The notes beneath the pieces were generated by a model. That model ran no database searches and was not told the DNA's origin. It was given only the letters and a program-made list of their open reading frames with translations. Made by a program: the position numbers and the translations under genes. Positions 11,927 to 35,047 of a stretch of DNA of 35,047 bases are shown piece after piece. Positions within the stretch are counted from its first letter, which is position 1. Each line of letters starts with the position of its first letter. The DNA is from Catajapyx aquilonaris (lineage: Eukaryota). Location of the stretch: NCBI GenBank assembly GCA_000934665.2, contig JYFJ02004131.1:1-35047 (forward strand). The letters run 5' to 3'.

Positions 11927-12154
11927 AGTTTGGGCTGAGAAAGAAATAATTAATTGAAAGAAAAGTTCACTCAAAAGTTTAATGTGTATAAAAAGTTTTT
12001 AAAATATTTAAATTAAAGTACTAATTTACTCAGAATAATTTAAGAAATAGTTCTGCTGAATATGCTGGCTAGGGTTCTACTTACCTGGAGTGATATAGGC
12101 CTACCCAGTTGGTTGAGCTGATAACTAATGGTTCTGATATTCCTGAGCCTATTG

Positions 12155-12922: not shown

Positions 12923-14348
12923 ATGCGTGTGGCTTGGGCTTCAGTTCGAACTAAAGAAGAGAACGTTCACGAGTCGTTCAGAACAATCAGAATCATTTTG
13001 GTTGCATTAGGTTTGCTCCCAGCAGGGACAATCAGGCCATCGGGAAATTTTTTGAAACATCATTTCAACATGATTGGTGTATTTTTGCTTTTTGCATCAT
13101 TTTGGGTTTATGGATCAGTGCAACATTCAGTGCTGAAGTACATCCACAAGGGAACCTACATCGGTTACTTTGATTTTGTCAGCGTGGTTTTGTCCAGTGT
13201 TTTGTACTTAGCTCTGATTGTCAACTCAGGTCGTATATGTCAGATATTCATTGATATTGAACAACTATGCAAGTCCATGTCAATTCGAGGTCATAAAATG
13301 CACCGTTGCGCATATTCGGCCATACTTTCTGTAATTGCCAGATTCTTTTCATTGGTTGCACTTACTCTAATGGCCCGGTGGCCAAAATCTACGAATGATT
13401 GGATTGCATTCGCATTTTATTCGTACATGGAATTTGTCGTTTTCATGGCGTGGTGTCAACTGGTGTTTTTAGCAGTGTATGTCACACGGATTTTGGAATT
13501 TATCAACTGCGAAATCATATCCGCTTGTTCTCAACGACAAAATATATGTTCTGATCAATCATTGGCTATTAATGTGGAACAAAAATACAGATTTTCATGT
13601 CTCTGTCGCGCTTACTTTAAAATTTGCGACATCGTTGAAAAAATTACTCAGTCATACGGAGTATGTCTTGTTGGGTACTACGCAATAGCTGTGATGTATT
13701 TTGTTATCTGCGCTTTTCTTGTGATCACGATAAAGGAAACAGAAATGATGACTTGGGACGTAATTAGCCTTCTGTTCGTCACAAGTTTTGTAGTTTCCCT
13801 CACTGTCATCTTGGGAAACATACCTTTAAAGGTAAGTGATATTATCGGATATTATTTTGTACCATGCTGCACATTCAAAGCACATTCAAAGTAATTGATT
13901 ATATTAATTCGTATTTATAATTATACTTTAAGGCAACCGATGCATTGCAACACCTTATTCAAGTGAGTAGTGTATATTCAAACGAGGAATTCCTAGAGCA
14001 GGTAAATGTTTTTTTTTCTTCATAATCCAGGTGATTGTTGTGACCACACATTCATAATCTCTTCTAGGTCCAGTCTCTGGTGAAGAAAATGTCAGGCCCA
14101 CCAGTGGAAGTGTCCGCTGCCCATTTATTTACCATCAACCGCAGCCTACTGACTTCAGTTAGTATATAACACACAGACACACTGTTACCCAAAAGTGTTC
14201 ATGATACCTGTATTTTATTATATTGTTGCAGATTTCTGGTGTTGTGGTCACATACATTATAATTTTAGTGCAATTTAAGCCTCCATCTTCTGACGTAGCT
14301 GAAAAGGCATCGATCGACAATGCATCAAGAACTTATATCATAGAGTAG
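12923..14348 (+). CDS. Gustatory receptor (7tm_7 family), 394 aa, 4 exons
   Basis: Exons 12923-13831, 13933-14001, 14068-14157, 14232-14348; multiple hydrophobic helices; C-terminal SAAHLFTINRSLLTS and TYIIILVQF (TYxxxxxQF) motifs; one long first exon followed by three phase-0 introns, the typical arthropod Gr layout. Confidence 0.92.
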
Positions 14349-14646: not shown

Positions 14647-15141
14647 CTACTCAATGCACTTGGTGTCCCTAGGCCAGGTGCATGAGTGCAAGGTCTGGTT
14701 GTACACCAATCCTCTCTGACACTCCTTCATGTATGCGGTACCTGAGTTGCACTCGCAGAACTTGTGGCAGTCTCCTGGGTACGGGTAGTACACCGGATTC
14801 GGAGGGTCGCGACGGGGACACTTTTCGGACACGGAGGGCGGACACGGAGGCGGAGGGGTGGCACTCAAGGTAAGGGTGTGACACTTGTATTCCTCCGAAT
14901 AAACGCATCGGCCCTGGTCGGGGTCAAACACGAGGTGACCAGGGCAATCGAAGTACCAAGCCACGCCGTTGCTACACTCGCAGAAGGCATGACAGTTGTC
15001 CTGTATAGGCAGGACCTTCGGAGGGGCAGGGTCGACTGAGGGACACTGGTCACTGATGGACATATCACATTGCCTTTGGGATAAGACAATGTGCGACATG
15101 CTGGCCAAAGCTGCGAGAAATATCGCTGGAATCATCTTCAT
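14647..15141 (-). CDS. Secreted peritrophin-like protein with 2 CBM14 repeats, 164 aa
   Basis: Signal peptide MKMIPAIFLAALASMSHIVLS; two 8-Cys repeats (FCECSNG, FCECNSG) matching repeats 3-4 of the paralogs; 5'UTR intron 15155-15232. Confidence 0.92.
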   Translation of the reverse strand: MKMIPAIFLAALASMSHIVLSQRQCDMSISDQCPSVDPAPPKVLPIQDNCHAFCECSNGVAWYFDCPGHLVFDPDQGRCVYSEEYKCHTLTLSATPPPPCPPSVSEKCPRRDPPNPVYYPYPGDCHKFCECNSGTAYMKECQRGLVYNQTLHSCTWPRDTKCIE

Positions 15142-15285
15142 GTTGTGGAATTATCTGAACAAAAACAAAATGATATTGTACTGGAAACTTGAGCTGTGCA
15201 CCTTGTACTACACCAATACCATTTATACTAACCTGAGGCTGAACCACAGTGGTCAATTCTGTGTTGAAAAATGACTCGAATGTCC

Positions 15286-15292
15286 TTTTATA
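15286..15292 (-). promoter_or_regulatory. Putative TATA box of the 14647-15141 gene
   Basis: TATAAAA on the minus strand upstream of donor CAG|GTTAGT at 15232. Confidence 0.55.
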
Positions 15293-15689
15293 GCATCGAC
15301 TGTTTCCTCCTTCAGTACACCTATCAAAAATAGTGACATCCTAATCTTTTGTATGGCCTATAAAATTTTCCTCCTCATTATCTGCTATTGCCACAAACAC
15401 CTGGAGGAAGAACAGAATCAAGTTATCATCTGTGTTATCATCTAGTTGACTGCTAGATTGTGCAAGTAAGGAAATGAAGTTCCTTCAGATGTAGTGTAAA
15501 GAAATAATTCAAATGCACACCAGCCGTCCGAATCCGCCCGAGCAGTTCCAAGTCAGCCGCAGCAACGCGACTTTTCCTTCCAGTCAGCAGTCCTTTGTGT
15601 GGAGCTTAGGGTTTCTCTCTCTCTGTTTGTGGCCTGACCTCAGGTGACCTGGGGTCGTAGTCTTTGTTGGAGGGGTTGGGTGGGGTAGG

Positions 15690-18600
15690 ATGGAAGGGGC
15701 TGGGATGGTGCTGGAGGCGGTGCTGGTCAACAGGAGGCTGCTGCAGGAGACACTGGAGCAGGGGAAGGGGATCAGAGACTGGATGGAGGCCATGGACAGG
15801 AGGATGGCCGCCATGGAGAACTGGGTCAAGGGGCAAGGAGGGCTGCCCACTGGCCAGGAGAAGTGCTGGCCAGCCCGCCATTGTTCGTTGTTTGAATTAT
15901 GTTAGTCAGAGTACGTATGCTAATTAAGGCGTTTTACACCAGCCGCACCTGGCCAGAGCGCACAGCCGGATGTACAACAGCCAGAAGATGAAGAACGCAC
16001 TTCTTTGAAACTGCCAGGGGAGATCAAAGTTGAGGCGGAATGGGATCCTGTCGAAGAACGACAGGATGCTGACCAGGACGCACATCACGACCAGCGTAAT
16101 GAGCATCAGGTGGGAGGAAAGTGCGTAAAGAAGAGCTTGACACTAATAATTTTCAATTGTAGGCTTCCCTGAGATTGCTAACTACCCATGATGATGGCAC
16201 TAGTGAATCGAAATTCATACCAGGGCCTGAACCTGAAGCCACTGAAGGACCTTCAAGTCTGGGTAATGGTGGGTATTGGTGTGGTTGTAAATTGTTGCAT
16301 TATGCTGATGCTATGTAACTCATCACACTTGGTTTCTTGTGTGCACCTCCAAAGACGGTCGAGAAACTCAATATGAGGGTCGTTTGGGATGCTCTGGGAG
16401 ATCAATGATAACTGAACCAAATTGGGAAGGTGCGAGGTCAGGTGACGTCCTATTACCACCTGAAGGCGTGTATGTCATGGAAGCTGAGCTCAGCAGCACT
16501 CTGGATATTGACGAGACTGAGGTGAGTTGACAAGTGGCGTGTATTGTACCACTAGTGATAGTTGCATATGTTGGGAAAGGCGCTATTCAGCCCCCNTTTT
16601 GTGAAAACCTACAAATGAAAATAGTGGGGACATGTCCCCACTAATTTACACATGTCCCCACTGTAATGGTACACTTCGCGTGTGTGAGACTGTGGGGACC
16701 GACAAATGTCCCCACAATTGGAACTGGTCCCCACAGCTACAGTAAAACCACAGACTTCCGTCCCCAGACCTTAGTCAAGACCTGATCACCTGGGGATGCA
16801 GGACTTGCTAAGAGCACATGAAAAGAGACAGAGTTGCAGGGGGCTGATTAAAGGTAACGACAGCGTGCGTTTCCATTGCATCTCTAAGGCCACTTGCACA
16901 CTTATTGTTATTATTTTAGTGCAGGCCATGTGCGGGCTGGGACGTGGGCATGGGCTAACAACAGGGTTCACGTGGAAACTTCAAGGATCTATTCTAGGGC
17001 CTCAACATCCATACTGTAGTCTACTGGTCATGGAATACTTTGTGTATCACATTGCTATGCAACACTTCATACTTTTGGAGACTCCAAACCAGTAGTTTCG
17101 TCTCCTGCGGCCAAGGATGACCTCGGAGGTCAAGTCAATGTGCTTGTGACCTTCCCAGTAAAAAACTACTCCTAATCATTCCCCTGGGGCATATGTCGAG
17201 ACTTCCGTATGGATTTGCATCGGGATCAGACAGAAAGATAGATATACGTCGAGAAATATGTATTACATTTGACGTACGCTGTAGCGAATTCCATTTGGCT
17301 TGTGAAGAAAAACCTTTTACTTTAAGCATAAGAAAATACTGTACTGTACTGTACTGTGGTTTATAGTTTTATTTTCACAAGTTTTAATTTAGTTCATATG
17401 TTGGGTTAACTTGCATCTCCCGTCATCGCTGACTACCCCTCATAGGGAAATGTCGTGATGTTGTTGCTGTTGTATAAGAAAATACTCAAGTTAATATTAT
17501 CTGAAGTGTATTGTGTACTAAATATACGAGTATAATGCCCTGTGGTTTATTATTGTAGCGTGAGTGGAAAGAGGAACAAGAAATGCAAGAAAGTGATGAT
17601 AGTAATGTGGCTTGTGAGAAATCTGACCGGACATCCAATCCCCAGAGCTCAGACGGTCCTTCAGAGCAGAATGCACATGAAATGGTGAGATATTAGAAAT
17701 GCTTACTAGGAAAACCCCTGCTCCGCTTGCATTTTCCTAAGGCGCAGGTCGAGAAAACCACTCGCTTCGCTCGCTCTTTTCTATGCCTGCGGTGTAGTCC
17801 ATGTTCTTAATGATGCTCATCCAACAATATTATCCGCATCATACTCCCCTCCCCTCGATCTCCCTCCGTGCCACCTGCCTCTGCCCCCTCCTTATATTAA
17901 CCCATTGACGGCTAAGTATATCATAATGATTATGATGGCCTGAGGGTTTTTGAACTACGCAGGTGGAGCCTGAGAGGCTCCAATGGTATATTTAAATCTC
18001 TGCTTATCAACTAAATTGTTATATTGGACTTTACACATTCAGAAACTGCAGTTCAGATCATTAGGCTTCCGAAAACGTAAAAATCACATCCGACAGGGAA
18101 AAATGTTAAGTTAAAGGTTACATCATGTTTGAGCCGCTCGGGCTTCACCTGCATAGGTAGAGCCTGAGCGGTTCCAGGAGGGACCTGTTCCTCATTACGA
18201 ATTTTTTTAAACCAAAGAATAGGGACTAAATTTTTTTTTGTTTCCTTTTCATGCTTAAGAAGGTTTTTCTGACAAAGTCACGGAAGGACAGGGGAAAATA
18301 AAATTCAATGAAAAAGTTACATCGTTTAAATAGTGGTTGGAGCCTCTAAGGCTCCACTTACGTAGTTATAGTCAGTTGTAGCCTACTGCTAGTGACATTT
18401 TCCAAAGTGACAGAAGTGCAAATCGAAGTGATATGGTGCGAACAGAGCGAGTAAGAAATGGTAGGCCTTGGGTGACGTCACTGGCACGGGGGCAACGGAG
18501 AAAAAGGCTTGTCCCCAGCTGGCAACGTCACCCAGGGCCTACCATTTTTGACTTGCATGAGTTGCACTCTATCACTTTGATTTACACTTCTGCCACATCG

Positions 18601-21600
18601 AAAATTGTAGCTAGCAGTACGACGGAATTAATGTCCAGCACTGCACGACAATACCAGTCTTACAAGTACTCAAGCATGTAATTGTCGTGAGCTGATAGTG
18701 TGTACTGGCCAAACATTGCTCGAGTGAATTGGCAGCCGGCCAACCGCTCTGCCACCACCAGCCACCACCACCCCCGCCACAATGAAGAAGCAGGAGCTGG
18801 CATCGCCGCGCTTGGTGACCCAAAGGGAAGGCGCACGGGTTCAAACCAAGCCATCCTGGCCAAGCGGGTAGAAATATTAGGCTGATGTCATTGTCACCGT
18901 CATCATTATCATCATCATTGTCCTGGACATAACTAAGAGATCGCGCGCNGGGGGGGGGGGGGGGGGGGGGGGAGAGAGAGAGAGAGAGGCGAGGGGCATC
19001 CTCCCCGTGCACACGCCACTGCACCTTGCAACGTTACTGCCCTACACTATTTCCTGGTGTTTGTGGCATGTTACCCATTTTAGTTGTGCGCAAAGCTAAC
19101 CTGTTGCAGTAAATGATCATGGAAGAATGAATTCCGAGTTGTTGACATATTATTACTGTGACAGGATGACACAAAACGAGTTGCTTCGGTGACCACTGAG
19201 GAGGAATTGGAAATGGTCCGCAATACTGCTGGAGTATGCGGACCATCAGCAGCAGTCCTCGACTTCCAGCCAGAAAAGGAGCTTGCAACTGATGGGGAAG
19301 AGGTAGAGGAGGAGGACGGACCTGCACCAGCCAAGCGTCCCATGATAGAGGATCGTTTGTGTTGCATATGTGGTTCACTGATGACTTCTGCATCAGATGT
19401 TATGTGTCACATGTGCAACAGTGTTGCCCACATGAAGTGCACTGGGGAAGGACGGGAGGTGGCACCAGGAACGTCCTACACATGTCCACTTTGTGTCTCA
19501 GCAGCTACCATTCACCATGAAAGAGCTGGGGCTCACCAAGGGCTGAAGAGAGGGGTGGAGGACATGCTGAAGAAATCGCACAAGCAGAAGCAAAATCTGG
19601 CTGTGGGTGATTGTGTCCTCTACAGTGTGCCGAAGGTTGACCGGGGACCTGTGGACCCTGAGAATATAGTTGGAGTAATACTGGCTACAAATGAGCATGG
19701 CCTCTTCCAAATGGGGACCAAAAAGGGCATCATCAATGGCTGGCATAGGGAAGAGGACCTGTGCAAGACCCTGGTGCAGTTTGTGACCCTTGATGATGTG
19801 CGTCAGGATAAGACTTTATCAGTCAGGGAGGCAATGGCTGCGTTCTCGGGGGGGCAAGGGTTCAGGAAGTGCATGTGCCAGCTGTCAAAGGTACGATGCC
19901 AAACTGCTAGATGTGGTTGCTTCCAGAAAAGCATGCTCTGTAACTCGAGATGTCATAAGAGCACACCATGTGGCAATAAATAGTTGGAAGCAATATCCTG
20001 CCTACGTTTATGGGAAACAGGGACAACATCATGTTAATGTTTCAGTTAATGACGTTCACAGTAAGTATATGTTTACTTGGGAAAGTGCCACTGCTGGGAA
20101 CACCATTTGAGTTATTGGAAATCAAAACTCTGAGTCATGAGTCACTGGGCGCAAGTTGAGTACTTTCCTCTCTCTGCATTATTTGACGCAAGTTGAGTTC
20201 ATGGAGATGACAAATGTTGCATTGATTTCACCGATGCAACTCATTTTGTGTCATTCTGTTACAGTAATAATATGTCAACAACTAGGAATTCATTCTTCCA
20301 TGATCATTTACTGCAACAGGTTAGCTTTGCGCACAACTAAAATGGGTAACATGCACAACCACCAGGAAATAGTGTGGGGCAGTAACGTTGAAGATGCAGT
20401 GGCACCCCCCCNGACCCCCCCCCCCCCCCCATCCCCCCGCGATCTCTTAGTAATGTCCAGGACAATGATGATGATAATAATGATGACGGTGATAATGACA
20501 TCAGCCTAATATTTCTACCCACTTGACCAGGACGGCTCGGTTTGAACCGTGCTCTTTCCCTTTGCGTCACCAAGCGTGGCGATGCCAGCTCCTGCTTCTT
20601 CATTGTGGTGGCTGGTGGGGGCAGAGTGGTTGGCCGGCTGCCAATTCACTTGAGCACTGTTCGGCCAGTACACACTATCGGCTCACGACATATACATATA
20701 GGAAATACCCATTTTACGCTGGTAATTGGTTCCAGCAACACAATGGGTGAATTGGGAGTAAGATGAAGAGGTGTAAAAGGGGTACTTCCTGTATAAGCGA
20801 TTTGAACTAGTTAAATTGTCATAATTTATGAATAAGGTGTCTCTTACTAGTGAGACTTCCTGCTGCCAGAGTATGTATTTGTCCAAAAGAAGTCGAGAAT
20901 GTAGGGTGAAAGATGTGGAGGAATCAACCAGTAATGGTGTAGATTGCAGACAACAAGACACTTGTGCCTTTTCCTAGACACCTCTGACAACAAACATTGT
21001 AGTCATTGACCGGAAGAACAGCATGTGAATTTGCAATGGTTGCATGGAATTAGCATATGCATGTAATAATGATTACTGTGCATGAGGCAACGTTGCAAAT
21101 TTTGTCCCCTATTGCATAGTACTCATGATCACTTTTACGTCCTGCTCCCTAGGCAACCATTTCTAATTCACAAGCTGTTTTGCCTTCAACAACTGAAATG
21201 TGGGTTGTCTAGGGAAAGCAAATGCATCAGGTCAGCCCAAAGAGTTCTGATATCCTCCTGAGACCTGAGAAGAATTTTTAAAGCAATGTCAGTTCCTATT
21301 GCATTTTCTGAACATTTTCCCAATAAGAAATGAGAAAAAAAATTTAGTTTTCAAAAATCGACAAAAATAGTGACAAACAACCAATGAGAACATTAGGACC
21401 CAATTGTTGCTACAAAAGCAGAACGGATGAAAGCTGAAAATTGAAATACCACTTAATGGATCACTCACATAGTGCTCTATCCTCAAAACAATGTTTTTAA
21501 AATTCATTTGTGGAATTTGTGGTAGCAATTCCTCTCAGAAGACAATGAAAGATAAATGAAATTATTTTTGAATGCCACCACTCCAGGCATTGGGCTTGCT

Positions 21601-24600
21601 CCTTCCCTTCTTACCCCCTAACATGGTACCTTGCTATTCTAGATTTTAAAACTGAACTGCATAGTGCAAAGCACACTTCCTTATGGGTGTATAAAGTCAC
21701 AGCCCATTCAGCTAAAAATGCCATTTTTCGGATGTCCATTTAAATGGGCATTTGGTCTCAGGAAGAAAAGAAAATGATCAGTTCTCTACAGCAACAAAGA
21801 TTGTAACAGGCACATCTTTTCGTATTTCCTAATACACATTCCTTGTGAATCCCAGGACATTCACTGCATTGCGAAAATCTCACTCTAAATATGAGTAAAA
21901 AAATAAAACTGATCAGATGAGCGCCTAGCTTCAGCAGCGGAATCCGCCATATTCATAAGTGATTCAATTTTCGCCGCCAAAGTCAGATATTCAACCCTAG
22001 GTGGCTACACCTATTGAGGCCAGATTGTAATCATGGGATACCAACATATTACAGTTCTCTTGGCATCACTAGTTGGCGCCAAAAAAATCTTTTGCTGATG
22101 TCGACATATGTCGATATCAGGTCTCAGGAGGATATAATATACCTAGAGAGGAAGTACTCCCTATCCTTTCCCATTAGCCAGGGAGAGGCAGCTGCCATCT
22201 TTACCATGGGCATATTGTTGCCTGACTTACATTTCAGCCCAAGTACTTTCTCTAGGTATACAGGGTGTATCAGAGTCACGAGTCAAGCAGGAGCGAGGGG
22301 TGGGGAAAAATTGTAGGTGGCGACAACCCCAGTCGGTTTTATAAAACAATTAGAAATACGGCAGTAATCAATTTATTTATTACGGTCTACGGTGTGACGT
22401 CACATCCTTTCTGTATTCAAATTGACCCCCGCGGACTGGCAAATGCAAGGCAAATGCTACACCGGCAGGGTAAGTACCCTGCCGGTGTAGCATGAGAGCG
22501 CCTTTTTCAGTGCAACCCGCAAGGCTAAAAACCCGTTCAACCAGGTTCAACAGAAAGCATTTGCCTTGCATTTGCCAGTCCGCGGGGGTCAATTCGAATA
22601 CAGAAAGGATGTGACGTCACGCCGTAAACCGTAATAAATAAATTGATTACTGCCGTATTTCTAATTGTTTTATAAAACCGACCGGGGTTGTCGCCACCTA
22701 CGATTTTTCCCCACCCCCTCGCTCCCGCTTGACCCGTGACTCTGATACACCCTGTATATTATAGCAGAACTCTTTGGGTCAGTCACATCATTACCCATTG
22801 ATCCTTTGACCTTTCCCATCCCTACATTTTGGACTTGTTTTGGGACAATGGTTACACTGGTGGCCAAAAGTCTCACCAGTGAAAAAGCACCCTGAATGTA
22901 ACACTTCCGTGACCATAAGGATTACTTTTGATACACATGTGCTTCAAGGCACATCTATCATATTAAAATCCTTATTTGTTTGTATAAGTCCTCTGATTGG
23001 TCTGCCCCCATATTGTTGTCACCGCCACATTCCGATTGGCCCCGTCCAATGTTACCTGGACGTGTTGTTACCATGACGCCTCCTATTGGCCCTCGTTCCG
23101 AGCATGCGCAATGGGTGGAAGAACGCCACTGTTGCTTGCTGGACGTCAACGAGGACTCATCTCCTCTCCCGTGAAGACCCCTAGCTACCCATCCACCTTC
23201 CTCCACCCACATCTTCACAGTGACCTCACAACAGGGGAGGGGGAGAGGAGCGGGAAATGGAACGTGCCATAAACAAACCGAATCGAATATTGGCCAAGGT
23301 CGGGATGTTGTTTATCAGTGGTGCCAACTCCATGGACATTTATGAACAAAGTAAAATAATCAGTTTCAGTTTTCTAAACAAGGTCCTTCGTGTCACCCTT
23401 GTGGGAAGAGTTTGGTAGCAGGATTAGCCGCGATATTCAACACTGAACCCGGAGATTGCCCGAGAATGTCAAAAGAAAGTGGCGGGAAGAATTAAAACAG
23501 TTTTTGATCATCTAATACAAACACTGGAGAAGAGTTCCATGGCTGTTTATAATAGGGGGGAGTTATGAACAGTTAGAAAGACGTGGTCGGAATGTGTGCA
23601 TATAATTTATGTACATGTGCGAGTAGAGGCAGTGAAGAGGTTGTGAATTTCTGTTCATACAATAATTTATTGGTGTTTTTTTTTAAATTCAAAAGGTATT
23701 GGTACCATATGTTGAAGTGGGCAAATGCGTATTTCCCAGCCAATGCAAAGGTGGGATTGCAGATTGGTTGCAGGGTAGGGAATCACAGATTATGTGAATG
23801 CATGGAGGAACTGGTGGGGTTGGGGGGCATGCATATGATTGGCATCATCACTGGCTATAAGTCCAAAGTATAACTGAAAATATGGTGGGCACTGTAGGCC
23901 GCAGGCCTAGAAAAAAGCGAGCGAAGCGAGTGGTTTTCTACGCCTGCGCCATAGAAAAATGCGAGCGTAGCGAGGGTTTTACTAGTATATTATTTACTTT
24001 TACAGTGTATGTGACAATATTTTTTTATTTTGCTCTAGGAATACTGGAAACTGCAGGTGACACCAAAGGCAGCTGATAATGATCTTTCACCAAAATCCAG
24101 CACATCTTCAGACACAGGAATTCCAGGCCAATCAATAACAAAGAAAGTGAGTTGTAATCTTGATTTTAAAAAGTACTCTAGACTTTTGATACATGGTAAG
24201 GCTCAAGTTCAGTGAATGTTCAGATATCTCCAACTAGCAGGTTACCCGGCGTTGCCCGGGTATGTTGGGGTGCTGGTAAAGGTAGGGGTGCATATACAGT
24301 ACCGTATTTTAGGAAGTGTGTTTGTTTGTAAAAATTTCCCTTCAATACACTCGAAACTCGATATGTCTTAAAACAGGCCCTGTAAGTTGCAATAAGCCAA
24401 AGTTTGTCACTATCTGTGATAGATTACCTGCTTGTCTTATAGCGTATAGTCGACACAGATATTCTGATTGGATGTGTAAAAAGAGGAATGCGGATGGAGT
24501 TGGCCCAGGAAAAGACTGCACAACCATGTGTTTTTTCCCATGCATTTTTGACAGCTTGACCCCCCAACCCCACTTCACACCCCCACCTCGTTCCATATGT

Positions 24601-27600
24601 TTGCTCTGAAGAACTTTAGAAATGTACCTACAGATTCATGGTCTGAAATTTTGTTTTCAACCCGGAGTAATATTTGTAAATACTGTATTATTTTATTGTA
24701 TTTATTTTTGTCTGGAAGTCTACTTTCAAATCCCACAAAATCCTGGAATGACCACTTATACGATACGAACTCACTTGAGGTGGGCGATTAGCGTAATTGA
24801 TGGATGCGTTGAATTTTTTATGATTATGATGATGATGATGATGTGTATTTTGATAGGTATTGTTGCATAAGGGCATTTCCATGGGAATGCTAATTGATAT
24901 ATTACTATTTGTTGATGTAAGTTAATTTTTGAGGCCAGAGTAGTGACAAGATTCGGGAATATGCATGTTGTGGGAGTTAGGTTCATTTTCGGAAGCTGAA
25001 ACATGCGGCGTTAGATTCCTTGGAAAATGTAACCCCCGATATGCTAGTTTAAGGCGGTGTAGGGGCCTTCCCCTGGATTTCTATAAGGGACAAACAAACA
25101 AACTCACAAACAAACTAAAATATAGATATAGATAGATGAAAAGAATGTTACAAGTTCGATCATGCACATGCACGTTGCACACACTGTGGTGCTAACTCAA
25201 GTACATTAGTAAAAAATCCATCATTAGTCACATGCATTGCACTCAAGATGTCTGAACATCACTGAACCTTTTAGTCCCACCATGTATAACAAACTTCAAG
25301 GGACCATCTGGTCCTCTGGGACGGGGAGACGGGGAACAAGCTCCACGGGGTGAAGCCGGTCCTCTCCCCCTGGGGGTCCTCCTCCCGTCCCGACAGGAGG
25401 GAGGAGGTCGTTCTGGCCAGGCTCAGGATGGGGCACACCCGCCTCACCCACGGCCACCTCCTCAGGGGCGGGGACGGCCCCCCTCTCTGCGGCCACTGCC
25501 ACCAGGCCCCTTCTCTGACGGTCCAGCACATGCTGCTGGACTGTCCTGCATTGCACCAACTCCGCCTAGACACCGGTCTCCTGCGGGCGGGAGATCCCGC
25601 TCCTTCCACCCTCGCTCATCTGCTGTCCGACTCCGCGGACCCCACTGTTATGTTGGCTCTCTTTTCTTTTTTGAAAAGAACCAACATGTATAGAGATCTA
25701 TAACCGTTGCATTTTAAAAATATACTCGTAGCGTTTTGTTTCACTTGTTACACTCTATTGAAATTTTATAGTCGCTACTGTAATAAATGCTCAAGTAATA
25801 AGATAATTAATTAATTAATTAATTATCTCATTTTTTTTAAAAAACAAAAAAAAACAAAAGAAACACACATTTTTGTTCAGTTAACGTTGGGGGTGGGGTG
25901 GCCTTGCCTGCCCTCCCCTACAACGTCACAGGACACAGGTGCTTGGCGCAGTATAGCCATTGCTGCTGTTGCGCCATTAAACCATTAATCAATCAATCAA
26001 TCAATCAAGGGACCATGGAAATCAGTCTGCTCTAACCAAGGTCTGTTGTTGCCAAATACGCAAGGACTTATGGTATATGGCAGGACTAGCCTTACGAGTC
26101 TGCCATAACGAAGGGTCTGTTATAGCCGAGGCTGTTATATCCAGAGCCTACTGTATTTACTAAGGGCCGGTTGCACCAGTCACGGTATATGGAACGGTAT
26201 ATGGAAGAACCCTGCACCGCGGGTACACGGTATATCCCATGAAAAACCGCGGGTTTATTCCATAGCGTTGCACCGGTCCAGATAAACGGGGGGTTTTCGG
26301 TAGAATGCTGGCCCATGAGAGACGTAAGCGGGCAAAAATTTTGGAGGGCGCTGATTGGATCGCAGCACCCGTGACGTCATGGAAGTATGGGTAGTCGTCT
26401 CGTATCTACGGCAACCATGTGGCAGGGTTGCCACCTGGTGTCACACAGTACACGAAATCCATAGCCCCATGACAACACCATAAACCCGCGGTATAAGCAA
26501 CATGTGCTGCAGGATCGGCGGGTAGATGGATCGGGCGGTAAATGGGAGGGAGAACGGGCCATTTTAGAACAACCGTAGGTGGCGCAACACTTCTCGCGGT
26601 ATACCGGAGTCAACACCCGCCGTTTTCCATATACCGTGACTGGTGCAACCGGCCCTAAGTGCATAATATGAAAGCGTTACAGGACTCTAGTAACTATGCT
26701 GCACTTGCAATTCTGAGAGAGAGAAAAAAATCTGTGGATGTATTGTGATGATGAGTCGTGAAAGTTTTAGTACAGTGAAACCTGTAGAAGGAAAAAAATT
26801 CTCATCATTTCTGCTACACACTCTCTTGATTCCAAAGGACATGGTCTGCCAGGTCTTGTTTAGGTTTCAGGTGGTATACACAAAATCTGAAAAAATATAT
26901 TGCTTGTGAGTTACAAGATAGGGAGGTTTAGTATAATTTTTTTTCCCCCCTTGTCTGTGAGATGGACAGGAATGAGGAAAGTGTCATACATGCACTAAAA
27001 TAGGTTTTGTTGTTATTGTTGTTTTAACATATCAGTTAATCACCTGGGCGTAGTAGGCTTTCTGGCTTTTTGGCCTTCATTGTGACTGTCTGACACCATG
27101 TAGACTAATCCAGGGAAATATTTGTTACATAACACTTACCTTTTAAACATTTTCATCTTGATACATCTCCTTTGGTGAAGTTTTGCCTAAAGATATACTC
27201 AGTGATGGAATTCTCATCTCACATGTCTTTTTATCCCATGCAAAACTTCATCTAAGAAATTTTGTCTGAGACATTGCCTGAAGAGATTTGGTTTGAAGAA
27301 TTTTCATGCCCATTCATCCAACACAATATTCTTGTCAGATGTACCCAATCACGAAATGATTCGGACAAAGTCTTGCTTTGATGAAAATGTGATAAACAAC
27401 GTGAAGAAAGCTATTGGAGTGTTGATGTATTGCTCTAAGAAGTAACACCTTGGGATATCTAAAATTATATTACCTAAGCGGAAAGCATAAGCTACTGCAT
27501 AAAGTTTTTATGCAGTAGCTAAATTCTAGCTTCAAAATAAGGTTAATCTGAAGTCAGCACAAGGTGGCCCCCAACACAGTGTTACACAATTTGGGTGAGT

Positions 27601-30600
27601 ATATTTTATCAAAGGTATTATGTTGTGAAAGTTACAACTCATAATGTATCCCTTATCATTTATATTAATTTCTTCTACTGGAGCAGCTGGAACAGTTCAA
27701 TTCGGGACAAGCAATAATGGATGTTATGATGGAAGTGGGTGATGCCAGTGTTGACGAAGGTCAGAATTACTATGAAGCTGAAACAACAAATTGGGTGCAA
27801 GGAAGTTACAATCACAAACGTCTCAAGTATCAAGAGGAAAGAGAGCAGATATTACTTGGAAAAGGGTAAGAATTTGTCTGAGTAGTGCCAAATATTGCAT
27901 TAAAAAGTAAGAGTGGCCTTCATAGCAAATGTGGCCCTGAGTGCTGATATGTTAAGGGTTGTTCCAGCATCTCTTTTATCGTAGGCCTAAGTACTTCCCA
28001 TTGTTTAAGCACAGTTGGTATACCTGGTTTTAAGAGGTTATCCAGCATTTGCTCCTTGGCTATCTCATTGCTGTGTCAAGTCCTATTTTCATTAAGAAAT
28101 TTTTTCAGTTGGCCTGAGAGCCATTATTTTTCCACCTGTTGAAAAAATATACCATATAATTGAATCACTGAAAACGAAATGGTCCCAAGTCCACATTTTG
28201 GCCAAATTGAGTTAGAGGCGGGAAAGTGGCCTACATAGTAGCAGGCACACACACTTGGAATGATAATGTCCCAAGTACCATCTTTGCCATCAAAATGAGG
28301 GAGCAGGAAAAGTAGGAGAGAATGGAAAAATTCCAGGTTCGGGACTTGGGACCTTCCCGAACTGTGCAGTTGGCCGCGCTGCATGCGCCTTTTGTTAAAC
28401 ATGGCTGACATGGGAGGCAATGCTTGCAGTGACCCCAGCGATTCTGAGTCCTGTTCCCGGCGAAGAAAACGTCCTCGGCCGAAGGGATGGAAGGCAAATA
28501 ATAACAAGTTTCTGAGGCATGCTGGCCAGGCGTATGAAGACTACAAGGGCCAGCCAAGACCGGCACGAGTAACTGGAACAGCCTGCAGGTGAGACAAATG
28601 CCCGGTGTGGCTGACTCATAACATATCTTACGGCATGCCATGCCTTTCTCAAGCAATGCAATGTAGATGTATCCTACGGTAGGTGCAAGAGAGAGTGCCT
28701 GTCTAAATTCAGTGACCCATGTAAGGCCGCACTGTTGGCTGAATTTAACAAACTGGCACATAAGAATTCCCAGGACGCATACCTGACATTCATGATTCAC
28801 CCAAGAAAAGTAGCCAGGCGACGTCCAAGGAAAGAAGATTCCACAGCATTCCGATCACACTCGTTCGTGTACACGGTATGGCATAGTAACGATGCTGGTG
28901 TAGCGTGGGAAAAATCAGTCATGCGTGCTATGATCAATCATTACTTATGTTATGGGTTTTCCCCTTAGATTCAGCAAGGTGAATGCGAAATGGTCATATG
29001 CAGGGAAGCCTTCGCCAGCCTGTTTGGGATTGGCATTAGGCGTGTAAGGAGACTGGGGCAATGTGTTGCGACAGTCTAGTCACCCAAGGATCTACACGGA
29101 ACACACCCCAACAGCTCCCGAGAGCTGAATGCTGAACAAAGGGACACAATATATTGACAGCCACATCAAATCATTTCCCTACAGAGTGGCTCATTATGGG
29201 TTTGCTGGTAATAAGCGTAGGTATTTGCCGTGCGATTTAAATGTAAAACTCATGTACACCTTGTATCTAGAGAAGCATTATCCGGAGGCCTACCTGAAGG
29301 TGAAGGCAGGCACTAATGCAGAGAGTGTGGCTTGCCAGATTAAGTACTCCTATTATCTGAATTACTACAGGGTAAATGTCAATTACCCCTTTGGTAGGCC
29401 ACAAATTGATGTGTGCAACACATGTTCACAACTCAAAACCACCTTGACTCATGAGAAAAACCATGCTATTAGGCAACGGTTCAAGCAAGACCTACAACTG
29501 CATAAGTGTAAGGCAAGATTGTTTTACAGTTGTCTATGTGAGTGTCAGGAAAGTGCTCAGGTAACAGATTCATTAGATGTCATATGCTTTGATATTGAGA
29601 AGAATTTCCCTGTACCTAAGTTGAACGTGAATGAAATATTCTACTGCAGGCAATTATGGGTCTATAACCTGTGCATTTTCAGTGGGAAACGGCAAGAATC
29701 CAAAATGTACATGCATTGCGAGCATGAGGCGCAAAGAGGGGGGTTAATGAGGTCATTTCATGCTTGAATGACTACCTTCAGAAGTACTTGTCACCTGGGG
29801 TAACAGACCTTATCATTTTTACTGACAGTTGCCCTGGTCAGAACCTGAACTATACCATGGTCCACTACCTCTTTTCCCTTGTATCACTGGGTCACTTTAG
29901 GTCGATCACGCACTATTTACCTACGAAAGGCCACAGTTATCTGCCCTGTGACAGGCAATTCTGACCATTGAGAGGGCCAGGAGGAGTACAGAAAGGGTCG
30001 AGCTTCCAACAGAGTGGGAAACCATTGTGGGGAAAAAATTCTCTGTTGTCCATATGGATGGGAAGTCCGTAAAAGATTACAAGGGACATTTCACCAGTAT
30101 CTTCAAGAAGAGTGTCACATGCAGGAAGCACACATTTCTGGTGTCAAAGTGCAAAGTACTACAATATTCGCAGTCACATAGGCATGCTGTGAAAGTGTTG
30201 CAGCTCATGTCAGGGTGTGATCCAGTGTTTTATCGCATTCAAAAGCCACGTACAACTGTTTCACTGCCTACGAATGTGTCATGTTATCCTGGGAATATTG
30301 CGGTGAAAAGGTAAAAGTTGTCAGATTTGCTCAAACTGAGGAAGTATTTGTCGCCAGCAGCAGCTCAGTTTTACTCCAACTTGGCAACACAGGATGGGGA
30401 TGTGTCAGATATGTCAGAAACTGATGATGAGCAATAAAAAATCTGATGTATGATGTTTGTGTTGGTGTTTCTCCAATCTTTAAACATGTTCCTGCATTTA
30501 TTTGCTGAGAAATTGCTGCATGGGAAGGTCTGGAAGGTGCGCAAAATGAAAAGGTCGCACTCCAACGACTTTGAAGGTGTCCTGCTCAAAGGTCATGAGG

Positions 30601-32496
30601 TGAGCAATGTCAACAAACTGATATCTCAACAAGCAAGCAGGTGCCCTATCCTCTGGCAGGGCTCCCAAACCTATTTTTCACTGGGCAATCTAGGAAAACA
30701 GTTTTTTGTTTCTCCTGAATAGTTGTGGTGCTTGGACTTGGGACCGTTTCGTTTTCAGTGATTCAATTTAGAATTTATATGGATCAGTATAGTTTTCTCT
30801 GGTTTGTAGTGTGGCTGCAAACCTTGTCATAAGTGTTTAACTGATTTTAAAATGCTTATTCTGTATTATTTTGTTGTTTCTAATAGCTACTTTCCTGCAT
30901 GTAATTATTACAAACTTACTACTGAGTGCCAATGAACTGTTTCCATTTCCTGTTCTACCAGAAATTCTCTGATCCTACCATTGCTCCTTCATGGGATATT
31001 ATTCTCGATGGGTGGGATGGAAGGGATTTTCTGGGGTTGCTGGAGTGTTATCTACAGTATTCAGGGTGGTAGTCTGTGATAAGGACACTGTGTCACACCC
31101 GTTGTCATCCAGAATCGAAAATATACAAGAAGCATATTTTCGACATGTGCATGTGCATGTGTCAATTCAAGCTACTCACTTGTCATACTCTAAGTTTAAT
31201 TGTAACTGGTTGCACCAAACACTAATGATGATCTGCATCAATTTACTTTATAGACTTCCTTCAGGACACTTGGTAAAAGCTAAGCCAAACTGGTCAGTGG
31301 AAACCATGAAAGAAGCATTTTTAGCAGTGAAACAAGACAAAAGGAAAATACGGGAAGTTGCTCGATCATTCCAGGCAAGCTACTTCTAATTAATATACTG
31401 CATACTTAATGCAAATAAGGCATAACATTTAACAGTTTCACATGTATTTGATTTATTCCAGGTGCCAATGTCCACTTTACGTGATCGTGTAAGAACTGGT
31501 GTGTGTGACCCAGGCATAGGACGCAAGCCAGTGTTTTCCCATGAAGAAGAAAAGGAACTGGAAGTGCTGCTGATTACCATATCAAAATTCTTTTATGGTG
31601 TACCATGCATAGAACTTCGCAGATTTGCTTACGAGTTTGCTGAAATGAAACAAATTAAACACCCATTCAATACTGGGGCCCGGCTGGCTGGTTATGACTG
31701 GCTTCAGGGATATTTGAAGCGATACCCAGATGTGGGGATATGCAAACCTCTGTTACGTGTAAAGCAAACTAGTGAAAGGGTGGCTCTGTTCTATTCAGAT
31801 CTTGCATCTGCAATGGAAAAGTACAAGTTCACACCAGACAGAATATTCAATGCCACTGAGGTGACAGTTATCAAACCAAAGGCACTAAAGCTTCTCGGTA
31901 CTGCAGGTATCAAGGAACAAGGGCACGGAGTTACTATGTTTTGTGCGTCATCTGCATCTGGCACGTTTGTATCTCCCATGATAGTATTTTCTCACATGCT
32001 GCAAGTGGACCTTCTGCTTGATGAATATGGCCCTCCTGGTGCTACTTATCACTCTTCTGGGAATGGAGGGATGAATATTGATCTGTTCTTTACCTGGAAT
32101 CAGTGCTTATGTGAACATGCCAATCCGAGTCCAGAAAATCCCATCCTTCTCATCCTTGATATCAACAGCTGCTATTTATCACTGAAGACTTATTCCTTTT
32201 GGCTTGAACATGGAATTGTTGCAATTTGCATCCCACCTGGTACTTCCCTTCAACCACTAGGTTTGTCATTCTACAGCTCCTTGAAAAGTGCATTTAACAC
32301 TGAGACTGATTTGTTTCTGATAACTCACCATAACGAGAAAGTAACCCCAATTGTCATAGCTTCAATACTGCGGAAAGCGTACGGACAAAGTGCAAAAGCT
32401 GGGAAGGTTATTGATGGGTTTCATAAAACTGGGATATGGCCTTCTAACGCAAGAACTTTCAACAGTGACAACTATGTTCCTGCAGACTCGATTTAG
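15690..32496 (+). CDS. Predicted host gene fused to a pogo/Tigger-derived domain, ~731 aa, 9 exons
   Basis: Phase-consistent exons 15690-15882 (or -15900), 15943-16109, 16163-16262, 16355-16521, 17559-17684, 24039-24146, 27687-27865, 31254-31374, 31462-32496; helical N-terminus, IKVE motif, acidic S/D/E/P linkers, then WSVETMKEAFLAV..IREVARSFQVPMSTLRDRV (psq HTH). Confidence 0.68.
16622..16784 (-). mobile_element. Probable DNA-transposon end with repeated GTCCCCAC/GTGGGGAC motifs
   Basis: 22-bp perfect palindrome TAGTGGGGACATGTCCCCACTA (16622-16643) plus several more motif copies; minus strand starts CAGG at 16784; partner end not found, and an N lies at 16596. Confidence 0.4.
17953..18367. 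mobile_element. MITE, possibly piggyBac-like
   Basis: TIR AACTACGCAGGTGGAGCCTGAGAGGCTCCAA / TTGGAGCCTCTAAGGCTCCACTTACGTAGTT; flanks TGAA and TTAT resemble decayed TTAA. Confidence 0.7.
18384..18619. mobile_element. Foldback MITE with TA ends, 236 bp
   Basis: TACTGCTAG...CTAGCAGTA; arms pair along the whole length, best in the core AAATGGTAGGCCTTGGGTGACGT / ACGTCACCCAGGGCCTACCATTT. Confidence 0.75.
18683..20690 (+). mobile_element. Non-autonomous Ginger-like DNA transposon with ~500-bp TIRs
   Basis: TGT...ACA termini (TGTCGTGAGC / GCTCACGACA); 18683-19192 is inverted at 20228-20690; internal ORF resembles the C-terminus of Ginger/KRBA2-like integrase-type transposases; TSD not exact (TAAT vs TATA). 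Confidence 0.72.
19189..19983 (+). CDS. C-terminal fragment of a Ginger/KRBA2-like transposase (PHD-like finger, VGD..VPKVDRG region, Cys-rich tail); no integrase core
   Basis: CCICG..MCHMCNSVAHMKC..YTCPLC; VGDCVLYSVPKVDRGPVDPENIVGVI; SVREA..SGGQGFRKCMC..C..RCGC..CNSRCH..CGNK; open for 264 codons from a GTG. Confidence 0.7.
   Translation: MTTEEELEMVRNTAGVCGPSAAVLDFQPEKELATDGEEVEEEDGPAPAKRPMIEDRLCCICGSLMTSASDVMCHMCNSVAHMKCTGEGREVAPGTSYTCPLCVSAATIHHERAGAHQGLKRGVEDMLKKSHKQKQNLAVGDCVLYSVPKVDRGPVDPENIVGVILATNEHGLFQMGTKKGIINGWHREEDLCKTLVQFVTLDDVRQDKTLSVREAMAAFSGGQGFRKCMCQLSKVRCQTARCGCFQKSMLCNSRCHKSTPCGNK
20698..20793. mobile_element. Small MITE-like inverted repeat
   Basis: ATAGGAAATACCCATTTTAC vs GTAAAAGGGGTACTTCCTGT. 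Confidence 0.5.
22261..22754. mobile_element. Tc1/mariner-type MITE, 494 bp, ~200-bp TIRs
   Basis: TA|CAGGGTGTATCAGAGTCACG ... CGTGACTCTGATACACCCTG|TA; arms nearly identical. Confidence 0.9.
24233..25137 (+). mobile_element. Non-autonomous Helitron/Helentron-like (DINE-1/Lep1-type) element
   Basis: 5' ACTAGCAGGTTACCCGGCGTTGCCCGGG short hairpin; 3' (CAAA)n microsatellite followed by TATAGATATAGATAGAT. Confidence 0.6.
25308..26006 (+). mobile_element. 5'-truncated LINE (I-group, Nimb/I-like) with target-site duplication
   Basis: ORF2 C-terminus RREEVVLARLRMGHTRLTH..CGHC..LTVQHMLLDC (stop 25703); 3' stem GGCGCA..TGCGCC, then TAAA and an (AATC)n tail; TCAAGGGACCAT repeated at 25296-25307 and 26005-26016. 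Confidence 0.9.
26164..26655. mobile_element. PIF/Harbinger-type MITE, 492 bp
   Basis: Perfect 31-bp TIR GGGCCGGTTGCACCAGTCACGGTATATGGAA; TAA TSD on both sides. Confidence 0.92.
28162..30764 (+). mobile_element. Sola1-like DNA transposon, full length 2603 bp
   Basis: 32-bp TIR GAATCACTGAAAACGAAA(T/C)GGTCCCAAGTCCA; AATT TSD on both sides; internal transposase remnants. Confidence 0.85.
28401..30436 (+). pseudogene. Disrupted Sola1-like transposase
   Basis: Motifs DVCNTC, CFDIEKN, FYCRQLWVYN, FTDSCPGQN, GHSYLPCDRQF; introns 28589-28682 and 28876-28968; in-frame TAG at 29077 and frameshifts near 29130, 29740 and 29960-30030. Confidence 0.8.
31254..32496 (+). CDS. pogo/Tigger transposase-derived exons (HTH_psq, CENP-B/Tc5 HTH, DDE_1) lacking two catalytic Asp
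   Basis: GRKPVFSHEEEKEL, ELRRFAYEFAE, AGYDWLQGYLKRYP, RIFNATE, LLILD, LQPLGLSFY, GFHKTGIWP; split by GC-AG intron 31375-31461; AATAAA at 33100. Confidence 0.88.
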
Positions 32497-33833
32497 GCTT
32501 GAGTTGTAGAGACTTTCACCCAAATCAGCTGAGCACCATAATGGCATGGTAACAAGAAGTGAAGAACCACCACATGCATAAATTGATCCTTCATCCACCC
32601 TTTAGTGTTTAGTGTATCAAGTTCCAAAAAAATTCCACTTCCGGAAAAGAATCATGAAGCTGCTCATGAAAGAAGGTCAGAGATAGGATTGAAAGTCATT
32701 CTGCGATTTTTTCAGCAACACCTTGTGTATAGACTTGCAAGCAAGTAGGGAAATGAGGGAGCAAAAACCTAATCTGGCTACTAAGGGAAATCCAGTTCAA
32801 TGGCAGGATCAAAGATGTGCCAGCAATAGTGTGGAAGAAAAGACTGGTGCTTGCTATTAATCCATTTCATGATGAGCAGGACAGTGATGATTAAGAGGAT
32901 GCATTAGAAGCTGGACATGTCAGTGTGAAACATGTTCAGATTCATGCTAATGAATGCAGCCATGTTGCAGCATAAGCATTTGTGTGATTTTTCAGTTCAC
33001 TAGTATTTAAATAACATGGGATGCATAGAAGCTATGCTATCCTTGCATTGCAATTTTTGTAGTAAACTGTTATTTGTTGTTACAAATTTGTTAATAAGAA
33101 ATAAAGGTAATGTTTATGGAAAATGTAGATATATTTCTTTAGCAATGCATAATTGCTCATTTTAGAGGCAGCAAACCAAACCTATTCTCATGTTGCATTG
33201 TGAAGTGGACTTGGAGATAGAACTAGGTAGAGAGAGCCCCATATACCATAAGTGATTAGCCATGACCAAATCATTTCATAATTAAATTTTATTAATAATT
33301 TATCATCAATGCTGCTGTTATTCTAAAATTGTGAACGTAAGTTCTGGTAGATAACCAGTTCACTTCCAATCACAAAAATGTAGTTTCATTTTTTTGGCTT
33401 TTCTTTTAGTTGCTCTCTATTGACAAACCCTAAAAGGTGTTGGAAATGGAAAGCATTGTGGGTCAGGAGGACAGGGGTTTCCCATAACCCATACGTATTC
33501 CAGTGACCCTGGGCTCAAAAGCTAAGGCTAGCTCTACATTTACAAAAAAATTTATTCTACTCCAGACGTAATAAGCAAGGTCTAGGTAATAAGAGCCTCG
33601 GCTATAAGCAACCCTCAGTTATAGCCAACTCGAAAGGCTGGTCCTACCATACTATCATATAATTATGTCCTGTGTATTTGGATATACTGTAGGATACTTA
33701 TTTTTTCGGTGGTTCCTTTAAGTTTTTTACATCTAGAATCTATTGTAATTAGTACCAATTCTTGTGCATCTGCAATTTTCATAGAGTGGGAGCTAAATAG
33801 TTAATAATGCAAACCATGAAACATTTTTTTCAG

Positions 33834-34253
33834 GTAAAGGTAAAGACAAGACAAAATTACACCTGTGAAAGGACCGAGTATGGAAGCTACCACTTTAAGA
33901 GGGGCAAGACAGCCACAGAGAAAAATAGTATGACCAGCGACACAAGTGTTGATGGCCAGAGAAGTGAAGTAGTGAAAAAGAAACACATTTCATATCAATT
34001 GTACAAGTGCCAGTTGTGTTCCTTTACCACTAATGACAGGCCCAATTGGAGTAGGCACCAAAAAATGCACACGGGAATTCAACCACATGCTTGTAGCTTG
34101 TGTGAGAAGAGATTCAATCGTAAGGACCATTTGCAAAGGCACATTTCTCTAATTCATGTCAGAGAAAAGCCTCATCCTTGTGAAATATGTGGAAAGACCT
34201 TTGCCATGAGATATAATCTTAAGCTTCATATGAAGGTTCATTTGAAAAACTAA
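33834..34253 (+). CDS. Terminal exon encoding three C2H2 zinc fingers
   Basis: CQLC..HQKMH-TGIQP-CSLC..HISLIH-VREKP-CEIC..HMKVH; strong acceptor TTTTTTTCAG at 33833 (phase 0). Confidence 0.85.
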   Translation, partial: VKVKTRQNYTCERTEYGSYHFKRGKTATEKNSMTSDTSVDGQRSEVVKKKHISYQLYKCQLCSFTTNDRPNWSRHQKMHTGIQPHACSLCEKRFNRKDHLQRHISLIHVREKPHPCEICGKTFAMRYNLKLHMKVHLKN

Positions 34254-35047
34254 TTAAATGTGCACTCTGTGATAAGAAGTTTAAGAGTGAGGCGTGAGAG
34301 ACTCTTGAATTGGCCCCCTTGAAACGGCATCCACGCAAAAAAGTGACATTTCCAAGATATGCCAGAAGAAATTGAGTTACAATAAGTGTGCTTGAAAGAA
34401 TCACCCCATGCATGTGCAATGTGAATACTGATGAAAGCAAAGTATCATAGGTGTTTCGGTTTTGTGTGTAATGCATTTACATTAAGGTGGAATATGATGA
34501 TTCTCTATGCAGACTTTGCATGTAGATTGCTCATGCACATGGTAGATGAGCATACTGCAACTAACATACAGAGATAAAGTAAGGTCATTTACCTGTACAT
34601 GTTGCCAACTGCCATTAGCTACAGTACCAGTAACAAAATGAAGTATTTTGTCTACTTGAGTACTACATGTAATGAGCCTGGAACATTGGTCATGGACTCA
34701 TGGCACATCATCTGTCACAATAATGACAGTGGCACAGGTGTAAAACTCGTGTGTACTGTAACAGCTAACAGTGCACCATGTTAATGTAACTGAATTGATA
34801 ATGGCAGTAGAGTAATTATTGTTGTCTTGAACAAATATGGGTTTTTTGTTGTAAATTAATGTGTGCAAGATATTTCCCTACTATAACCGAGGGAATAGGT
34901 GGGCGTGTGGGTGACTGAGAGAAAGCCACAATGTTAAATTAATATATTCCATTGATGTAGCTATTATTATTATTATTATTAAGTTATTGTGGCAAAATCA
35001 CTGCTATGTGACCATTTTACCCTCTCCACCCCCACCCCACCCCCTGC

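Follow-up and report, generated by a model that had tools for sequence, protein, structure and literature searches.

Host-transposase fusion genes born by splicing, including KRABINER/ZNF112, SETMAR and PGBD3-CSB, are described by Cosby et al. (bioRxiv 10.1101/2020.05.07.082677), who set out a route of three steps, namely insertion in or near a host gene, splicing to the 5′ edge of the transposon, and maintenance. For ZNF112/KRABINER, the same preprint places the transposon in the last intron of a zinc-finger gene. Here, we analysed positions 1-35,047 of contig JYFJ02004131.1, a stretch of 35,047 nucleotides (nt; hereafter the window), where small exons are spliced onto an exon that encodes the first part of a pogo/Tigger-type transposase. 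The evidence given below leads us to regard this locus, with fairly good confidence, as an invertebrate host-transposase fusion gene, in which four small exons are spliced in frame onto an immobilised and catalytically dead transposase (Table 1); removal of an 87-nt intron, selection on the open reading frame (ORF), DNA binding by the product and a role for its N-terminus are the parts of this reading that we infer.

Like the fusions described by Cosby et al., the locus has separate transposase and host exons, an acceptor at the 5′ edge of the transposase, and a transposase unit that brings its own stop codon. A zinc-finger ORF lies downstream of the captured element, as in KRABINER, where it is the terminal exon of the parent gene; unlike in KRABINER, exon 4, through which the transposase is reached, does not share the frame of the zinc-finger ORF, and a parental isoform is here only hypothetical. 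The locus further differs from KRABINER, SETMAR and PGBD3-CSB, as these are presented in the preprint, in belonging to an invertebrate, in having captured an element of pogo rather than mariner type, and in carrying an acidic N-terminus without a KRAB, SET or other known domain.

Vertebrate pogo-derived genes provide the second point of comparison. The catalytic triad is partly or wholly lost in several of them, whose proteins act via DNA binding, and a partly kept triad is reported for CENPBD1, TIGD2, TIGD6, TIGD7 and POGK (Gao et al. 2020, PMC7386202). Going by that account, the product of the present locus resembles CENP-B, JRK/JRKL, TIGD2-7, POGK and POGZ in combining helix-turn-helix (HTH) motifs with a retained DDE_1 domain, a partial triad and no terminal repeats, and it resembles POGK and POGZ in being a chimera with an added N-terminal part. 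It is the orthologue of none of the vertebrate pogo genes covered there, its added part is neither KRAB nor zinc fingers, and whereas the fingers of POGZ precede the transposase part within one protein, the fingers here follow the transposase stop codon (PMC7386202).

Splice joints and exon structure of the fusion gene

A search of public sequencing runs over positions 25048-35047 returned a single run that contains this stretch, X1 (share 0.20, library type unrecorded); none of the runs containing the stretch is recorded as RNA. Contigs of X1 were placed on 15100-35047, with depths of 3-8. The coverage was patchy, with zero depth in 5 of 30 bins, and high depth was found mainly in bins whose contigs have many differences or loose ends. 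Because of the patchy cover, this depth pattern and the spliced contigs described below, X1 fits a complementary DNA (cDNA)-like library rather than genomic DNA.

The X1 contigs revealed four GT..AG joints, 16521>17559, 17684>24039, 24146>27687 and 27865>31254 (raw joints 16519>17557, with the cut shifted by +2; 17683>24038, shifted by +1; 24146>27687; and 27864>31253, shifted by +1), which connect the upstream exons to the transposase exon by splicing. One 361-nt contig with 0 mismatches runs through exons 1, 2 and 3 into exon 4, of which it contains the first 25 nt, and the joint 27865>31254 was seen at a depth of 3.9, with a shorter side of 62 letters. A preliminary description of the window, made from the letters alone, had proposed a shared, BTB-less N-terminus, and its junction with the transposase exon at the acceptor 31254 is borne out by the X1 joints and by the frame check. 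Further mismatch-free X1 contigs were found at 31509-31876, 32120-32603 (spanning the stop codon), 32627-32881 and 34164-34404.

Exons 1-3 each end in phase 0, and the six coding pieces, joined with the 87-nt segment 31375-31461 removed, amount to 1686 nt or 561 codons with one terminal stop. In the tblastn comparison, this segment corresponds to a 29-codon gap with respect to the relatives of the transposase and contains two stops, while its ends read CAG/GCAAGC and TTCCAG/G. We take it for a GC-AG intron, and the local BLASTP alignment of the spliced product is continuous across residues 217/218. The intron, which lies inside the HTH, was probably gained after immobilisation of the element, because the aligned relatives have no residues at that place. 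X1 has no cover at 31316-31508 and 33720-34163, where the mean depth of the bin multiplied by its length is fully explained by the listed contigs (bins 31060-31724 and 33720-34384). Since both regions are uncovered, X1 is silent on the removal of the 87-nt segment and on the use of an acceptor at 33834, in front of the zinc-finger ORF.

Exons 1-4 encode about 177 N-terminal residues of acidic character, and the first 185 residues of the product contain 37 aspartates and glutamates versus 16 lysines and arginines. When the four N-terminal pieces were tested exon by exon against Pfam at E<=0.1, 0 families were matched by each, BTB being among those absent, and an Atlas look-alike search with exon 4 gave no usable match. 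The tblastn comparison of 159 relatives with the window detected no transposase similarity in exons 1-4, and upstream of 31198 it gave two weak matches only, at 19327 and 22837. The transposase homology begins at 31255, so the two parts of the product, encoded by exons 1-4 and by the exons that follow, are distinct in their similarity and are brought into one 561-codon frame by the joint 27865>31254, which was seen, and by the predicted 87-nt removal.

A side observation concerns the 3′ side of exon 4. If its donor were left unused, the frame would continue for 14 further codons to a TAA, with ATTAAA just before (27866-27910, plus strand), and this stretch is possibly an older 3′ end of the host gene, one that would have had no need of a finger exon.

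The immobilised transposase-derived part

The C-terminal 370 residues of the product are a pogo/Tigger-type transposase. The match to DDE_1 (PF03184) has E=2e-5 and 24.7 bits against a cut-off of 22, and it is preceded by HTH motifs, as expected of the pogo/Tigger group; the HTH region aligns with relatives bearing PF05225 and PF03221. A word-index search yielded 9 relatives (best identity 33%), with precomputed assignments to PF03184, PF05225 and PF03221, and an exhaustive search yielded 6679 relatives at E<=1e-3, including 306 at E<=1e-30 (best identity 40%). For exon 6, neither an orthologue nor a close paralogue was found, nothing exceeding 40% identity in the word-index or the exhaustive search. 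Tblastn aligned residue 1 (Met1) of relative P0020 at 31255, where the first complete codon of exon 5 starts, and the acceptor therefore lies on the ancestral start codon of the transposase.

To read the catalytic triad, exon 6 was aligned with 29 relatives, 26 from the best 30 matches of the exhaustive search and 3 from the word-index search. The first catalytic Asp, kept in 26 of the 29, is Thr in the window and stands beside a deletion of about ten residues. The second is kept in all 29 and in the window, where the conserved histidines that follow it are absent, and the third, kept in 27, is Gly. Thus, the second Asp alone remains of the DDD triad. Among columns that are at least 90% conserved in the relatives, the window keeps 35 of 52, and the relatives keep a fraction of 0.75-1.0; two of the 17 missed columns belong to the HTH half in exon 5, outside the query range, and are an artefact. 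Under a rough neutral model, a loss of this size predicts about 8 stops in 344 codons, whereas 0 were observed (the probability of none being about 3e-4), and all insertions and deletions relative to the relatives are in frame.

An active element would carry terminal inverted repeats with a target-site duplication, but no convincing inverted pair was found flanking 31200-33100. The inverted pairs around 30850-32981 are only 14-25 nt long and 84-93% complementary, and they lie inside or across the coding region, while a nested element at 28158-30768 gave a clean 36-nt pair in this search. The C-terminal tail of the relatives, which has a Cys/His-rich end, is missing from the product, and tblastn with the 159 relatives detected no remnant of this tail after 32496 and nothing in the region of the zinc-finger ORF. 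These features fit an immobilised, exapted transposase rather than a merely dead copy, with selection presumably acting on the ORF.

The origin of the locus matches the three-step route of Cosby et al. A pogo-type element would have inserted into or next to a host gene, splicing would then have linked the host exons to the transposon at its 5′ edge, with the acceptor falling exactly on the old start codon, and the arrangement would have been maintained. The 561-amino-acid (aa) product keeps the paired HTH DNA-binding region and the DDE_1 fold but would be unable to cut DNA. Rather than a transposase, it would most likely be a chromatin protein or a protein that binds DNA in a sequence-specific way, and its acidic N-terminus may act as the effector part.

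Several points weigh against the view that this is a maintained fusion gene. The transcript evidence comes from a single run, whose library type is unrecorded and whose depths are 3-8, and the chain of exons 1-6 was assembled from separate contigs and not from one molecule. The segment 31375-31461 is uncovered in X1, and its retention would stop the frame at 31387-31389. The neutral-decay figure comes from a rough model and not from a formal test. With a closest relative at 40% identity and no orthologue found, the gene may have arisen recently, may be confined to one lineage or may be an exonisation that has no function. Furthermore, as the four N-terminal pieces have no Pfam match and exon 4 no Atlas look-alike, an origin of the N-terminal exons in an older host gene is hypothetical.

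On the same evidence, the fusion transcript might be a non-functional by-product, in which a dead pogo copy, inside or downstream of a gene, is spliced in through chance sites without any selected role. We consider this unlikely. The low depth in the sole run, the lack of orthologues and an N-terminus without a recognisable domain agree with it, but it leaves unexplained why the 561-codon frame is intact although about one third of the conserved transposase positions are lost, and why every insertion or deletion is in frame. It also sits poorly with an acceptor placed precisely on the old start codon, with an 87-nt segment of full GC-AG consensus exactly where the relatives have no residues, and with the fact that no terminal repeats are left. 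A captured and maintained transposase remains our preferred reading.

The downstream zinc-finger open reading frame

The same strand carries, at a distance of 1337 nt from the transposase stop, an ORF with three C2H2 fingers downstream, where the preliminary description had placed it (about 1.3 kilobases (kb) downstream). Also in line with that description, the transposase ORF (31426-32496) has its own stop (TAG, 32494-32496), and AATAAA at 33100-33105 is the only such motif between this stop and the finger ORF. A strong phase-0 acceptor had been claimed as well. The AG at 33832-33833 does follow a T-run, and an exon using it would start at 33834 in phase 0. Under a crude rule (YAG with at least 11 pyrimidines in the 17 preceding bases), however, the plus strand of the window has 172 acceptor-like sites, about 4.9 per kb and nine of them in 33000-34300, so that chance could account for one in the opening 33 nt of the ORF. 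The bases after this AG also read as a fair donor, CAG/GTAAAG. A joining script reproduced the frame relations listed in the preliminary description: joined to donors 16521, 17684, 24146 or 31374, position 33834 keeps the finger frame open, and joined to 27865 (exon 4) it leads to immediate stops. With these qualifications, all the sequence features that the preliminary description listed are present.

All twelve zinc ligands of the three fingers are intact, and the 55 non-finger codons from 33834 to the first finger are all open. The ORF could also start on its own, because ATGs at 33807 and 33816, between its upstream stop and the AG, are in frame. Whether the ORF is transcribed was a check put forward in the preliminary description, and its 3′ end is indeed transcribed in X1, being covered by the contig 34164-34404 (0 mismatches), which is the sole X1 cover in its bin. 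A joint to 33834 is not among the X1 joints, X1 having no cover at 33720-34163, and the ORF is a putative member of the fusion gene. A homologue search among proteins of 82-263 aa gave no candidate, and among longer proteins 9 of 25 candidates matched, all through generic resemblance of the fingers (identity no higher than 38%) and never over the non-finger part. We treat the finger ORF as a candidate, either for an alternative or former terminal exon or for a separate small gene.

Beyond the finger stop, at 34236-34385 (plus strand), another frame opens like a C2H2 finger, with Cys-x2-Cys and the Phe that usually follows, before a stop ends it. The array thus seems to have had more fingers in the past, the fourth having been disrupted by a shift of frame and a stop.

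Three explanations of the ORF were weighed. Tentatively, it may be a small gene apart from the fusion gene, a mere neighbour with a transcript start and a start codon of its own that would encode a three-finger protein of 145-148 aa. This agrees with the in-frame ATGs, the second of which has an A at minus 3, with a stretch of about 33668-33806 in which no ATG was seen, with an A/T-rich, TATA-like stretch noted by eye near 33655-33668, and with the stop and AATAAA that the transposase unit has upstream of the ORF. No transcript start was observed, however, in a region that X1 leaves uncovered, and promoter motifs recognised by eye in DNA of 35% G+C are weak evidence. Stand-alone three-finger proteins without another domain are also less usual than finger-bearing terminal exons, which counts against a separate gene.

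It is doubtful, but conceivable, that the ORF is instead a second, alternative terminal exon, by which one N-terminus would receive one of two DNA-binding modules. In a sharper form modelled on ZNF112/KRABINER, which shares the same doubt, a C2H2 gene made of exons 1-3 and the finger exon would have captured the pogo element in its last intron, and both isoforms would coexist. The position of the ORF behind the transposase on the same strand, the phase-0 acceptor-like site 33 nt into the ORF, which fits the phase-0 donors of exons 1, 2 and 3, the intact zinc ligands, the open codons before the first finger and the mismatch-free X1 contig over the 3′ end are all consistent with such an exon. 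According to Cosby et al. (bioRxiv 10.1101/2020.05.07.082677), elements captured by splicing have in most cases inserted into an intron, which predicts a downstream host exon, and that of KRABINER belongs to a zinc-finger gene. Set against this are the absence of an X1 joint to the (uncovered) site at 33834 and the frame of the ORF, which disagrees with exon 4, the exon feeding the transposase, so that exon 4 would have to be skipped or isoform-specific. The frequency of acceptor-like sites of such quality (4.9 per kb), the in-frame ATGs, the eroded look of the array with its broken fourth finger right after the ORF, and a closest relative of 38% identity over the fingers speak in the same direction.

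Similarly doubtful is the explanation that the ORF is a decaying remnant, either of an abandoned parental terminal exon or of a gene with more fingers, and that its RNA cover is read-through or noise. A fourth finger broken directly past the stop, with three left, is what decay would produce, and so is the outcome of the homologue search (no match at 82-263 aa; generic similarity of at most 38% for 9 of 25 longer candidates). According to Cosby et al. (bioRxiv 10.1101/2020.05.07.082677), moreover, the parental transcript is often lost in older fusions. Decay is nevertheless at odds with 150 open codons in AT-rich DNA, where about 7% of random codons would be stops as estimated from base composition, and with twelve zinc ligands that are all intact. 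An origin of the finger ORF in the same element as the transposase was rejected, the tblastn comparison with 159 relatives having given no match in the finger region.

Should both forms coexist, exon 3 would be joined either directly to the finger exon or through exon 4 to the transposase, giving one acidic effector two DNA-binding specificities. The locus would then correspond, in an invertebrate, to ZNF112/KRABINER, and it might mark the beginning of a lola-like, multi-module locus that continues past the window; we hold this to be rather unlikely.

The preliminary description had gone further and compared the locus with lola and mod(mdg4), as a modular system that recruits new DNA-binding modules from transposons. 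In lola and mod(mdg4) of Drosophila, common BTB 5′ exons are joined to one of many alternative 3′ exons. More than 30 isoforms are made by trans-splicing in mod(mdg4), as reported in PMC13490949 and PMC6237743. The present locus is like these genes in idea only, in having one N-terminus and separate 3′ exons on the same strand for different DNA-binding C-termini. Unlike them, it has no BTB or other Pfam family in exons 1-4; it holds at most two modules in the window, one of which is joined, through an extra exon 4 that the other could not use; and neither an array of variable exons, within a window that ends 794 nt past the finger stop, nor evidence of trans-splicing was found. On the tested features, the locus thus fails to belong to the lola/mod(mdg4) type. 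What stands of the proposed swap is one N-terminus spliced to a transposase module. A simple exchange at a shared donor does not fit, since, of the donors tested, 27865 alone disagrees in frame with the finger ORF, and it is this donor from which the transposase is reached (31374 lies in the transposase exon). A system recruiting modules from transposons exceeds the one captured transposase, and the host-transposase fusion route explains what was found.

Other features of the window and meaning of the locus

The coordinates of the fusion gene, the finger ORF and the other features are collected in Table 1.

Table 1. Positions and strands of the features described in the 35,047-nt window.
Feature	Position	Strand	Remarks
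Exon 1, coding part	16405..16521	+	From first in-frame ATG, 39 codons; X1 contig covers 16420-16519
Exon 2	17559..17684	+	126 nt, 42 codons, acidic; both ends phase 0; X1 joints on each side in one contig
Exon 3	24039..24146	+	108 nt, 36 codons; both ends phase 0; same X1 contig as exons 1-2
Exon 4	27687..27865	+	179 nt; ends two bases into a codon; X1 joints on both sides
Exon 5	31254..31374	+	Base 31254 completes the split codon; from 31255, first half of transposase HTH (psq-type); acceptor used in X1
Putative GC-AG intron	31375..31461	+	87 nt, phase 0, in-frame stops; removal predicted
Exon 6, coding part	31462..32496	+	Second HTH half, second HTH region, DDE_1 with degraded triad; ends at TAG
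Probable 3′ untranslated region	32497..33105	+	To AATAAA 33100-33105; X1 contigs reach 32603 and cover 32627-32881; end placed by motif
Three-finger C2H2 ORF	33834..34253 (open frame 33801-34253)	+	PF00096, E=3.5e-15 and, in a second test, E=2.5e-15 with 3 stretches; stop TAA 34251-34253
Nested DNA transposon	28158..30768	+	2.6 kb, in intron 4; 36-nt terminal inverted repeats, 97% complementary; outside the fusion coding sequence
CBM_14 (peritrophin-A chitin-binding) single-ORF genes in tandem	7786-8754, 11027-11998, 14647-15150	-	E=2.1e-38, 4.1e-32, 2.7e-20
Exon-like ORFs matching LDL-receptor class A and Trypsin	~500-5650	-	Four pieces tested

The nested DNA transposon in intron 4 is younger than the captured pogo element. 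Its plus-strand ORFs are distributed among several frames. DUF7869 (PF25273) is weakly matched by one of the pieces, with E=7.2e-4, which falls short of the curated cut-off. X1 has a contig at 29479-29980 that shows 1 mismatch, and no convincing target-site duplication was found around 28158-30768.

Intron 2 holds several inverted repeats. At 18676-20697, an ORF (19162-19983, plus strand, 273 aa) with a weak PHD match (E=6.6e-4), a Cys-rich end and zero X1 depth is surrounded by long arms (about 18676-19192 and 20228-20697) that are 90-96% complementary, and the whole resembles a foldback-type element. The inverted repeat at 22257-22758, nearly perfect and hairpin-like, with 162-nt arms that are 97% complementary and 97 nt apart and with outer arms of 54 nt, looks like a miniature inverted-repeat transposable element or a foldback element. 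Just inside the two ends of the intron, after the donor 17684 and before the acceptor 24039, stands an 89-nt inverted pair (17704-17792 and 23899-23987, 87% complementary), and X1 has an 'opposite strands' joint at 17784/23944. The pair could be two copies of a short repeat, or its pairing could bring the splice sites together.

Elsewhere, the window contains multi-exon eukaryotic genes and many transposon fragments, and its source is most likely an invertebrate animal, because three CBM_14 chitin-binding ORFs are present on the minus strand. The exon-like ORFs at about 500-5650 probably form one multi-exon serine-protease gene with LDLa repeats. On the plus strand, a 331-aa open frame at 12899-13894 is rich in hydrophobic stretches, has no Pfam match at E<=0.01 and may encode a multi-pass membrane protein.

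New transcription factors are known to arise when transposase DNA-binding domains are captured by splicing, and tetrapods are the only group covered by the survey of Cosby et al., as presented in the preprint (bioRxiv 10.1101/2020.05.07.082677). As it stands, the locus is a good example of this route and introduces no new principle; it is a clean invertebrate case with RNA support and provides a data point on the generality of the capture route. If the finger ORF proved to be the parental terminal exon, the locus would represent an intermediate stage with both isoforms, of the kind that Cosby et al. found mainly in young fusions.

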